A DNA stretch of 64,000 nucleotides from Escherichia coli. Lineage in GTDB: Bacteria; Pseudomonadota; Gammaproteobacteria; Enterobacterales; Enterobacteriaceae. Each line of letters begins with the position of its first letter. Position 1 is the stretch's first letter. The DNA lies in NCBI RefSeq assembly GCF_044324785.1, contig NZ_CP172127.1; one strand, given 5' to 3'. A model generated the notes under the pieces. It was given only the letters and a program-made list of their open reading frames with translations, had not been told where the DNA came from and did not search any database. Below, piece after piece: positions 9,972-31,910 of this stretch. A program made the translations under genes and the position numbers.

Positions 9972-10829
9972 TCAGGCTACCGCTTTTTCAGTTTGTTGCG
10001 CTTTCAGCCAGGCGATCTCTTCTGCCCAGATATCCGGGTTGATGGTTTCAAGGATCAGCGGAATGCCGTCGAAACGGTCGTCCTGCATGATCCAGCGGAA
10101 CGCATCATGACCGATATTGCCTTCACCGAGGCTATGATGGCGGTCAACGCGGCTGCCAAAGGTGCTTTTCGCATCGTTAAGGTGCATCCCGCGCAGATAC
10201 TTAAAGCCGACAATACGGGCAAAATCAGCGAACGTTTTCTCGCATTCGGCTGGAGTACGCAAATCATACCCGGCAGCAAAAGCATGGCAGGTATCAATGC
10301 AGACGCCGACGCGGGATTTATCTTCCACGCCGTCGATAATCGCCGCGAGATGTTCGAATTTAAACCCTAAGTTACTGCCCTGACCGGCGGTGTTTTCAAT
10401 CACCGCTGTTACACCTTGAGTTTTATCCAGCGCAATGTTGATGGATTCAGCAATACGCGCAAGGCAATCCTCTTCTGAAATCTGCATCAGATGGCTGCCA
10501 GGGTGGAAGTTGAGCAAAGAAAGCCCCAGCTGTTCGCAACGCTGCATTTCATCTATAAACGCATCGCGCGATTTTTCCAGAGCTTCAGCGACCGGATGTC
10601 CGAGGTTAATCAGATAACTGTCGTGGGGAAGAATTTGCGCCGATGTGTAGTGATATTTTTCACAGGCGGCTTTGAATTCATCGATGGTTTGCGTCGTGAG
10701 CGGTGCGGCACGCCACTGACGTTGGTTTTTGGTGAACAAGGCAAACGCGGTTGCGTCGATTTCGGCGGCGCGAATTGCGGCATTTGCCAGACCGCCAGCA
10801 GCACTAACGTGCGCTCCAATGTATTTCAT
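9972..10829 (-). CDS. nfo: Endonuclease IV (AP endonuclease)
   Basis: 285 aa, length and neighbourhood as K-12 Nfo; TIM-barrel AP endonuclease family. Confidence 0.92.
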
Positions 10830-19903: not shown

Positions 19904-19998
19904 TGCTGTGACTCGATTCACGAAGTCCTGTATTCAGTGCTGACAAAATAGCCGCCAGCAAGCAGTCATTTACTGCAATCTCATAACAGGTAGTGAAT

Positions 19999-21051: not shown

Positions 21052-21067
21052 TGTGAGTGATTTCACA
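21052..21067. promoter_or_regulatory. CRP binding site (TGTGA-gtgatt-TCACA) upstream of mglB
   Basis: Perfect match to both CRP consensus half-sites. Confidence 0.6.
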
Positions 21068-24994: not shown

Positions 24995-26230
24995 TTACAA
25001 CGTTACCGGGTGTTCTTTCTCTCCCTTCTTAAACTTCACTTCTCCGAGATCAATACAACCCACCGGGCAGACGTGACCACAAAGCAGGCAACCAACACAT
25101 TTCTCGGTATTACAATGCGGTGTACGGGTTTTCTCGCTCCATTCCATCGCCTGGTGACCGCCGTCGTAACAGGAAATATAACAGCGTCCACAGCCAACAC
25201 ATTTATCAAGATTGATACGGGGATAGACAATGTAACTGCGGTCTAAATCTTCCGCCGGGACAATATTGTTATTCGCCAGACCCACCATCTCCTGCAACGA
25301 ATCAAATCCCTGATCGGCGAGATAATGCGACAACCCGCTCGCCATATCTTCTACGATGCGATAGCCGTACTGCATAATGCCGGTGGTGACCTGTAACGTT
25401 GCTGCGCCGAGCAATAAAAACTCCGCCGCATCTTCCCAGGTTTCAATACCGCCGATACCGCTGATCGGGAAATCGCGCAGCTCTGGATGGGTACGCATTT
25501 GCTGAATGAAGCGCAGGGCGATCGGTTTTACCGCTTTACCGGAATATCCGGAAATACTCGATTTACCGTTAACGATCGGCATACCGATTTTCTGATTAAG
25601 ATCGATATTGGTGATGGATTTAACGGTGTTAATCGCCGCAATGCCATCTGCGCCGCCGCGCTTCGCCGCCAGCGCCACTTCGCACATATCACCGATATTC
25701 GGCGTCATCTTCGCCAGCATTGGCAGCGTGGAACCCCGTTTCACTGCCCGACAATATTTTTCTACCAGCTCCGGGCTTTGCCCGACATCGCTCCCCATCG
25801 CATGAGAAGTCATTTGCGGACAGGAGAAGTTACACTCGATCATATCGGCGCCTGCTTTTTGCACCAGATGCGCCAGATCTTCCCATTGCTGCTCATTTTC
25901 GCCCATGATCGAAGCGATAAGCACTTTGTCCGGGTAATCTTCTTTCAACCGACGCAGGGCGGCCAGATTCTCCTCCAGCGGATGCTCGGCAATCTGCTCC
26001 ATATTTTTGAAGCCGATAAAACCGGTATCTTCTTTCACCAGATGATCAAAACGCGGAGAGACTTCGTTGGCGATAAAAAAGCCGATCGTTTTAAACACCA
26101 CACCGCCCCAACCAGTGTCGTAGGCTTTGGCACACATCTCATAGCAGTTGCCTACCGGCGAAGAAGAAAGGCAGAACGGGTTGGGAAACTTCACGCCGCA
26201 AAAGGTAATCGAAAGATCTTTCGTTAACAT
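24995..26230 (-). CDS. preA: NAD-dependent dihydropyrimidine dehydrogenase, PreA subunit
   Basis: 411 aa from ATG at 26230; C-terminal 4Fe-4S ferredoxin motifs CVGCGRC and CVGCLLC. Confidence 0.9.
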
Positions 26231-27462
26231 GAGCAAGCTCCCTCTAAATAGTGATGAATCGCCCCGGCGGCTTCTTTCCCGGTTTTCACGGCATAGACCA
26301 CGGTTTTGTCACCCTCAACAATATCGCCAGCAGCAAAGACTTGCGGATCGCGGGTCTGATAATTTTGTGTTTTGATGGTGTTACGCTGCGGCTCTAACTC
26401 CGCAAAGGCATCCAGTCTGGCATGCTGACCGACGGCGAGAATAATTTTATCTGCCGCCATCGTCAGTTCGCCCGGTAACCGTACATGCTTAAACGTGACT
26501 TTATTGCCTTCCACGGCTACTGGCGTGAATCCATCGATGATCGAAACGCCCAGCTCCCGGGCGCTGGCAAACTCTTTTTCGCTTGCCGGAAACTCATCTA
26601 ACTCTTCACGCGCTACGCAAGTTACTGCCTGACAGCCGAGAACTTTCAGCGTGCTGGCTACGTCCATCGCGACATCACCGCCGCCGATAATTAATGCGTT
26701 TTGTGGAATGCTGATATCGCCTTGCGCCTGTCGTGCACGTTGCAAGAAGTCGACGGCAATCTCAACGTCGCTATGCTCAAACAGTGGTAGCCCGGAACCG
26801 CTAGATAACCCCACGGTGACCAGTACCGCGCGGTTTTCCGCTTTCAGCTGCTCCAGGGTGAGTGTTTTACCGATTTCATTATTGCACTTAATGGTCACGC
26901 CCATTTTTTCAATACGGACGATTTCTGCATCCAGTACTGATTGCGGTAACCGGAATTGCGGAATGCCGTTACGCAACCAGCCACCGGGTTGTGCTTCTTT
27001 CTCATAGATCGTGACGTCATAACCCTGGTTTGTCAGCGTCACACTGGCCTGCAATCCCGCAGGACCTGCGCCAATAATCGCGACTTTGCCGAGCGTTTTA
27101 GTACCGGGCTGATAAATTTCCATCCCGGTTTGTTGTTCAAAATCAGTAACAAAACGCTGTAAGCGGCCGATATCAATGGGAGCATCAACACCGGCACGGG
27201 TACAACCGCTTTGGCATAATTTCTCCGTCGGGCACACTCTGGCACAAACGGCACCGAGGGCATTATTTTCGCGAATTGTCTCGGCAGCGCCTTTAAAATT
27301 ACGAAAGTAGATTGAGCGAATAAATTTACCCGGATCGGTCTGTGCCGGGCAAGCCTGACTACAGGGAGCGTCATGACATAATAAACAGCGAGAGGCTTCT
27401 TTAATCGCCAGTAAAGGCGTAAAAGCCGGAGTGAGTTCATCCAGATAATTTTGTTGCGGCAT
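26224..27462 (-). CDS. preT: NAD-dependent dihydropyrimidine dehydrogenase, PreT subunit
   Basis: 412 aa; nucleotide-binding IIGAGPAG motif; 7-nt overlap with the preA start. Confidence 0.9.
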
Positions 27463-27554
27463 GTGATCTTCCTTAATGCTATGAGTAATTAAGGCGAACG
27501 CTAAATAAATATTGCGTGCTGATATTAAGGCTATGCGCGTGGGGAAATTTAAAC

Positions 27555-27570
27555 TGTGAAAGGATTCACA
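27555..27570. promoter_or_regulatory. CRP binding site (TGTGA-aaggat-TCACA) upstream of preTA
   Basis: Perfect consensus half-sites 93 bp upstream of the preT start. Confidence 0.55.
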
Positions 27571-27655
27571 AATAGCTGCGGTTCAGAATGTTATATCCGC
27601 AGCTTATTGAGTGAAGTAATAATTATTCTCAATAATTAACAGAAAAGAGAAAATA

Positions 27656-29651
<1,996 letters not shown>

Positions 29652-29710: not shown

Positions 29711-29726
29711 TGTGATCTGAATCTCA
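29711..29726. promoter_or_regulatory. CRP site (TGTGA-tctgaa-TCTCA) in the cdd promoter, with CytR-like TGCAA motifs nearby
   Basis: CRP-like half-sites about 67 bp upstream of the cdd start; cdd is a known CRP/CytR-regulated promoter. Confidence 0.5.
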
Positions 29727-31001: not shown

Positions 31002-31910
31002 CTAATTCTGCTGTAAAAAGTGCAGAAACTGACTTAAAGCATAAGAAGGCGTTTCGTTATTGCGCCAGAACACACCGACGCTGCCTTTCTGTTCTATCTT
31101 TGGCAGGTTGAGGATCACCAGTTGTCCCTGGCTGGCATAACGTTGCGCCAGGCGTAATGACAAAATAGAGATCATATCGCTGCTTTGTAACAGGTTGGTA
31201 CTGACGTTCATCGACGCCGACTCAATCGTGTTTTCTGGCAGCATCACGCCGTGGTCTACCAGCGCATTATCAATACTGATGCGAATGGGGGTACCTGTCG
31301 GCCAGACTATCCACCGCCAGTTAGCAAGATCATTCCAGCTGAGGGTGGCGTATTTCGCCAGTGGATGCTCAGCACGGGCGACAAAACACACCGGCTCGGT
31401 GTAGAGCACCTTATAATTCAGTGGCAGCTGCAAGGCGCGACCGCCAATTCGCCCAACGACCACGTCGACAGAACCTGCCAATAGATCTTGCAGCAATGGG
31501 GTCATAACCTTCTCTTCAATATTCAGGTGTAGAGTTGGCATCTCCTTGAGCAAATGCAAAATCGCCTGGGATACGCAGTCAGTGGCGACGGGAGAACAGC
31601 CAATTTTCAGACTGCCGACCAGCCCACCTTGTTTAAAACGGGCCAGTTCATGTTGCGAGCGCTCCATGTCATTGATTAACCGCTGGGCATGTTGCAATAA
31701 CAATCTACCGCCTTCGGTAGGGCGTAACCCTTTGCTGTGCCGCTCAAAGAGTGTGAGGCCGATCTCATCTTCGAGTTGTGACAACCATTTCGACAGCGCA
31801 GGCTGGGTGATATTCATCATCCGCGCGACATGGGTCAGATTGCCCTGTTCACCCAGCGCCACCAGCATTTGCAGGTGATGAAGCTTTAGTTTCTGCGCCC
31901 AGTTTGCCAT
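31002..31910 (-). CDS. mhbR: LysR-family regulator of the gentisate cluster
   Basis: ATG at 31910 with SD tggagg gives 303 aa; HTH near the N-terminus; divergent from the catabolic operon. Confidence 0.75.
   Translation of the reverse strand: MANWAQKLKLHHLQMLVALGEQGNLTHVARMMNITQPALSKWLSQLEDEIGLTLFERHSKGLRPTEGGRLLLQHAQRLINDMERSQHELARFKQGGLVGSLKIGCSPVATDCVSQAILHLLKEMPTLHLNIEEKVMTPLLQDLLAGSVDVVVGRIGGRALQLPLNYKVLYTEPVCFVARAEHPLAKYATLSWNDLANWRWIVWPTGTPIRISIDNALVDHGVMLPENTIESASMNVSTNLLQSSDMISILSLRLAQRYASQGQLVILNLPKIEQKGSVGVFWRNNETPSYALSQFLHFLQQN

Follow-up and report, generated by a model that had tools for sequence, protein, structure and literature searches.

CRP promoters of class II, such as galP1 or the one served by the proximal CRP site of cdd, have their CRP site centred at -41.5: the 16-bp core of the site covers positions -49 to -34 and is followed by 21 nt and then by the -10 hexamer, at -12 to -7. 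Both the AR1 and the AR2 surface of CRP take part in activation at promoters of this class. CytR/CRP promoters, of the cdd, deo and udp type, are built on two CRP sites separated by about 52-53 bp, with a CytR operator between them. The operon studied here, preT-preA (yeiT and yeiA), encodes PreTA, the dihydropyrimidine dehydrogenase of bacteria, by which gut E. coli inactivate 5-fluorouracil, an anticancer drug (bioRxiv 10.1101/820084, PMC11185696). CRP, cAMP and catabolite control are not mentioned in these PreTA drug-metabolism papers.

A link between CRP and this operon is nevertheless on record. RegulonDB held 195 CRP targets in 2011, yeiT (the former label of preT) included, and yeiT appears in Table 1A of Shimada et al. 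2011 (PMC3105977) among the known targets recovered by Genomic SELEX. Table S3 of the same study places a SELEX-chip peak, 'yeiS> >yeiTA', at 48.1 min (2.23195 Mb), with TGTGAAAAGATTCACA as the CRP box and yeiT as the known target. The study also cautions that some RegulonDB CRP entries are sequence predictions only; for the yeiT site, its in vitro selection provides binding evidence. The entry itself probably stems from run-off transcription and microarray work by Zheng, in NAR in 2004. The sequence-only reading of the present DNA had proposed that preTA is under direct catabolite control and had taken this to be undocumented. The latter view does not hold, yeiT being a RegulonDB CRP target by 2011; the former is supported by in vitro SELEX binding and by the conservation of site and spacing in three genera, described below. 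The motif upstream of preT is thus an already catalogued cAMP-CRP operator, which makes it an ordinary site for an activator rather than a discovery. As the known CRP operator of the preTA promoter, it probably acts through class II activation of preT-preA.

The window, i.e. the whole 64-kb stretch of DNA analysed, is an E. coli chromosome segment that covers the galS-mglBAC / preA-preT-yeiS-sanA-cdd region, as judged from its ORFs and from the annotations of K-12 and strain N3. On the minus strand, the order is cdd (28767-29651), sanA (27898-28617), yeiS (27656-27895), preT (26224-27462) and preA (24995-26236), each supported by an ORF and by annotation (for preT, that of K-12 and of the E. 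coli genomes that match, in RefSeq); galS and mglBAC lie further left, on the plus strand. The first gene of the operon, preT, encodes a subunit of NAD-dependent dihydropyrimidine dehydrogenase and starts at the K-12 annotated start, ATGCCGCAACAA; the second, preA, overlaps the preT stop. Between yeiS and preT, an intergenic region of 193 bp contains the CRP site. The two genes are in tandem, not divergent; with yeiS pointing in the same direction, no gene other than preT could plausibly be served by the site as a promoter element. A 501-bp stretch around the site was matched in 5,424 of 5,426 complete E. coli genomes, where the features it covers are annotated preT and yeiS. The allele carried at 27300-27800 is itself uncommon: a match of at least 99% was found in a single complete E. 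coli genome, that of strain N3, most others matching at 90-99%, and it has variants in common with Escherichia sp. MOD1-EC7003. An Rfam scan of the same segment returned nothing credible, its sole match being PrrF at 19 bits (gathering score 90, E = 0.76).

The 16-bp core of the cAMP-CRP site, TGTGAAAGGATTCACA, occupies positions 27555-27570 and reads TGTGAATCCTTTCACA on the preT sense strand. An exact pattern search confirmed these coordinates and the perfect match of both half-sites of TGTGA-N6-TCACA, around a 6-bp spacer. The distance of 93 bp between the proximal edge of the core and the A of the preT ATG, given in the sequence-only reading, was also correct, the preT start agreeing with the K-12 annotation. 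The description of the site as consensus-perfect is right for the 10 core bases; over the full 22-bp site (27552-27573), 13 positions agree with the consensus AAATGTGATCTAGATCACATTT by our own count. The K-12 allele, TGTGAAAAGATTCACA, which is the one bound in the SELEX-chip experiment, differs by a single spacer base (AAAGAT in K-12, AAGGAT in the window), and the spacer of the window is the predominant one in Citrobacter. Perfect matches to the motif are rare: two are present in the window, at 21052-21067 and 27555-27570, against 0.07 expected by chance, as estimated from 100 dinucleotide shuffles of the window, none of which contained two or more.

When one mismatch was allowed, 8 matches were found in the window, versus 1.68 expected. 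The perfect match at 21052-21067 belongs to mglB, whose motif had rightly been called as good as that of preT. The same had been said of the cdd motif (29711-29726, TGTGATCTGAATCTCA), which in fact carries one mismatch (TCTCA). The one-mismatch search also returned the galS site (19907-19922, TGTGACTCGATTCACG), so that four CRP-bound promoters (galS, mglB, preT and cdd) lie within 10 kb. Four more one-mismatch matches were found at 2200-2215, 2255-2270, 10649-10664 and 31752-31767, the first two 55 bp apart. The boxes listed in Table S3 of Shimada et al. (PMC3105977) for cdd (TGAGATTCAGATCACA), mglB (TGTGAAATCACTCACA) and galS (CGTGAATCGAGTCACA) are identical, once reverse-complemented, to the sites that start at 29711, 21052 and 19907 in the window. 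Together with the preT box of the same table, this means that every CRP motif of the sequence-only reading was already catalogued.

We examined whether the preT motif might be a chance palindrome, or the mere tail of the yeiS terminator, devoid of any regulatory role. The CRP site is directly adjoined, on its upstream side in the preT sense, by a stem-loop on the minus strand (27574-27604, AGCTGCGG-N15-CCGCAGCT) with an 8-bp stem and a 15-nt loop, which is probably the sanA-yeiS terminator; a simple terminator scan misses it because its loop exceeds 8 nt and its T tract is weak. The RNA fold of the surrounding 101 nt (27560-27660, minus strand) has a predicted energy of -22.5 kcal/mol (z = -4.06). 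The left half-site of the motif overlaps the T-rich tail of this hairpin, and the predicted fold allows GTGAA to pair with a TTCAC further upstream, both of which speak for this reading. Against this stand the 0.07 perfect matches expected per window, the in vitro binding of the preT site by CRP (Shimada 2011, PMC3105977), and the situation in Citrobacter, where the hairpin is a different one, in sequence and in position (further upstream), with the CRP site unchanged. The CRP site is therefore not simply part of the terminator. A chance or terminator-tail origin, to which we give next to no credit, is effectively refuted by the SELEX binding and by the cross-genus conservation.

This conservation was analysed on 21 loci: the window, K-12, 7 other Escherichia, 10 Citrobacter, one MAG labelled Raoultella and one Pseudocitrobacter vendiensis. 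All but the window and K-12 derive from a PreT scan of species-representative genomes, which returned 19 close loci and one distant Clostridia homologue, with no Salmonella or Klebsiella orthologue; its Escherichia loci include E. coli, E. albertii, E. whittamii and three further Escherichia lineages. Synteny of cdd-sanA-yeiS-preT-preA is kept in 18 of the 19 related loci. In P. vendiensis (L015, 1948-3001), a gap of ~1 kb with no detectable yeiS homologue separates sanA from preT, yet CRP site, TAGCCT and leader repeat (see below) are all still there. A perfect TGTGA-N6-TCACA is present upstream of preT in 21/21 loci; none was found upstream of the Clostridia homologue. Downstream of the CRP core, the hexamer TAGCCT is likewise present in all 21 loci, 21 nt away from the core in 20 of them and 20 nt away in the remaining one, whereas TAGCCT lies 64 to 236 nt from the ATG, depending on the locus.

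Comparison of Escherichia with Citrobacter gives an identity of 1.0 for the 10 CRP core bases and for TAGCCT, versus 0.46 for the 21-nt spacer that separates them and 0.42 for the rest of the yeiS-preT intergenic region. In the MAFFT alignment, the conserved blocks are CTATtTGTGAAtccTTTCACAg, TAGCCT and a leader block, GCCTTAAT...CATTAAGGAAGA. A fixed spacing between core and hexamer, next to a variable spacing between hexamer and ATG, is the pattern that a CRP site and a -10 element forming one unit should show. This phylogenetic footprint is the sole new element of the present analysis, and it likely fixes the architecture of the preTA promoter.

We infer this architecture as follows. The predicted -10 hexamer is TAGCCT itself (27528-27533, minus strand), invariant and at fixed spacing. 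The CRP core, the 21 nt and TAGCCT fit exactly a CRP centre (27562.5) at -41.5, which would place the preTA start near 27521 (27520-27522, minus strand; K-12 about 2,233,973) and give a 5' UTR of about 59 nt. TAGCCT has 3 of the 6 bases of TATAAT, namely T at -12, A at -11 and T at -7. These are the three most important -10 positions; the remainder of the hexamer is weak, as would suit a promoter that relies on an activator. At the -35 position stands ACAGTT, with no usable -35, and a simple sigma-70 scan returned no preT-sense promoter here. The lack of a -35 under the CRP site is as expected for a class II promoter, and CRP may thus be centred at -41.5 of a preTA promoter of this class.

Under this model, low glucose and high cAMP would bring a CRP dimer onto the sense-strand site TGTGAATCCTTTCACA. 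The site would replace the -35 element, its centre lying about 41.5 bp upstream of the start, and CRP would recruit and activate sigma-70 RNA polymerase at the weak -10 TAGCCT (class II activation). Transcription would then proceed from near 27521 through a leader of roughly 59 nt into preT and preA.

Other geometries can be drawn at this promoter. The hexamer TAATAT (27522-27527) was considered as the -10; in E. coli it is closer to TATAAT (4/6) than TAGCCT is, but it is not kept outside Escherichia, reading TAAGAA in Citrobacter and TGCTAA in Pseudocitrobacter, where TAGCCT is invariant. With TAATAT, CRP would sit near -47.5. A CRP centred at -47.5 lies on the non-activating face of the helix. 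Alternatively, transcription could start elsewhere, with CRP acting at a class I promoter, as a repressor or as a roadblock to yeiS transcripts. Such arrangements would agree with the position of the CRP site next to the yeiS terminator hairpin, and with Kim 2012, where no start is given at the predicted position and the sole start listed for yeiT, supported by 2 reads, falls within yeiS, 228 nt upstream. We regard them as improbable, in view of the invariance of TAGCCT and of the exact 21-nt spacing, which fits -41.5, and retain the class II geometry.

A different question is how much CRP matters to preTA in the cell, as Fur also acts on this promoter. A sequence resembling a Fur box, TATTGAGAATAATTATTACTTCACTC (27609-27634, minus strand), has the yeiS stop on one side and the hairpin on the other, and precedes the predicted start by about 100 bp. 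The supplement of Sastry 2019 (PMC6892915) reports a regulator motif match for preTA, TATTGAGAATAATTATTACTTCACCT, at position 2,233,859 of K-12, which corresponds to window positions 27609-27634, and the expression modules of that study group preT with iron-uptake and Fur genes, not with a Crp module. An anaerobic Fur ChIP-seq peak was found at the preT promoter, and a preT-lacZ fusion was activated in a Fur-dependent manner (both Beauchene 2015, PMC4676285). The core of the Fur box, TGAgAAt..TTAttAc, is conserved in Citrobacter. With a Fur peak, a Fur motif and Fur activation, CRP is one of at least two inputs to the preTA promoter. The preTA mRNA was found to be higher aerobically (Spanogiannopoulos et al.), and published variation in preTA expression was attributed to O2 and Fur.

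It could thus be that CRP binds the site and matters little in vivo, the expression of preTA being set by Fur, iron, oxygen and read-through from sanA-yeiS. This would account for the Fur-type module in which preT is found, and the effects of Fur and O2 on preTA have been shown experimentally. CRP ChIP-seq, which the sequence-only reading had named as a check, gives a negative answer for preT, of limited weight: the Haycocks 2015 table for enterotoxigenic E. coli (ETEC) H10407 has a peak at cdd and none at preT, but also none at mglB, and the absence of such a classical site indicates that the sensitivity of this table is limited. The supplement of the crp/rpoS transcriptome of Franchini 2015 has no preT entry. 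The supplement table of the Crp ChIP-exo study of Latif 2018 covers sigma-70 promoters, and its sanA-yeiS row is uninformative for preT. A full-text literature search with four spellings of the 16-mer core found no paper. In open-access main texts, no paper was found to link preT or preA with cAMP, which would suit a minor role of CRP. On the other hand, a strong hairpin stands between yeiS and the CRP site, and the site and its 21-nt spacing are kept in three genera amid flanks that are about 42% identical, which argues for selection on promoter function. On balance, a marginal role of CRP in vivo appears unlikely to us, and CRP activation of preTA remains the favoured reading. It is the sign of the CRP effect in vivo, activation, and its size that we infer here.

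Downstream of the predicted promoter, the preT leader contains an inverted repeat of 24 nt, CCTTAAT-N10-ATTAAGG (27471-27494, minus strand). Its 3' arm, 8 nt before the preT ATG, includes the Shine-Dalgarno sequence (AAGGAAG, 27468-27474). Across the three genera, 21/21 loci agree in the arms, in the 10 nt that separate them and in the 8 nt that lead to the ATG; the one departure, in Pseudocitrobacter, is a C-to-T change after which a G.U pair can still form. A stable RNA hairpin was considered and is not supported by the energy of the predicted fold, which is no better than that of shuffled sequence (z = 0.19). The motif GCCTTAA occurs again at the -10 (TAGCCTTAA). With considerable reserve, we mention that the repeat might constitute an undescribed second layer of preTA control, either as an anti-SD hairpin or as an operator for some regulator. 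Such control, if real, would set the translated share of the transcript driven by CRP and Fur, and hence the inactivation of 5-fluorouracil by gut E. coli.

The variable distance from the hexamer to the ATG includes insertions between the -10 and the leader repeat, found in three Escherichia loci (L004, which is that of Escherichia sp. MOD1-EC7003, at about 2795-2960; L005; L007) and in many E. coli genomes. They lengthen the leader by 68-171 bp in the three loci, and span about 125-275 bp in the E. coli genomes, as measured on the two-piece matches listed. The inserted DNA is a dispersed intergenic repeat, of which E. coli genomes have a median of 4 copies each; it contains AAGTGACTGGGGTGAGCG and presumably resembles ERIC/IRU elements. 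These insertions leave the module formed by the CRP site and the -10 intact.

The catalogued CRP link implies that the availability of sugars in the gut would tune the inactivation of 5-FU by bacteria. For the 5-FU field it is a useful reminder, and not a new regulatory discovery.

How, then, does preTA compare with the systems described at the outset? Like the cdd-type CytR/CRP promoters, it is CRP-controlled and belongs to the same neighbourhood of pyrimidine salvage and catabolism, cdd lying 2 kb from preT. A CytR/CRP architecture was considered for preT and set aside: there is a single CRP-like site, the sequence 52 bp upstream of it reading TTATTACTTCACTCAA, which is not CRP-like, and in 21/21 loci no second CRP site with up to 2 core mismatches was found in the 330 bp that precede preT. 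The promoter therefore lacks the tandem-CRP scaffold required by CytR. Fur activation of preTA (PMC4676285; PMC6892915) takes place in the same promoter region, where the Fur box precedes the CRP site by about 67 bp, as counted to the centre of the latter, but differs from the CRP operator in the regulator and in the signal (iron, anaerobiosis). With class II promoters of the galP1 type, preT would share a single CRP site in place of the -35 and a weak -10, the 21-nt spacing between core and hexamer being fixed at preT; the geometry proposed for preT is deduced from what is conserved rather than read off a mapped start. Closest of all is the CRP-yeiTA interaction of K-12 (RegulonDB/EcoCyc; PMC3105977), in which locus, intergenic region and site are those described here: all 10 core bases agree and, one base of the spacer excepted, nothing substantive differs.
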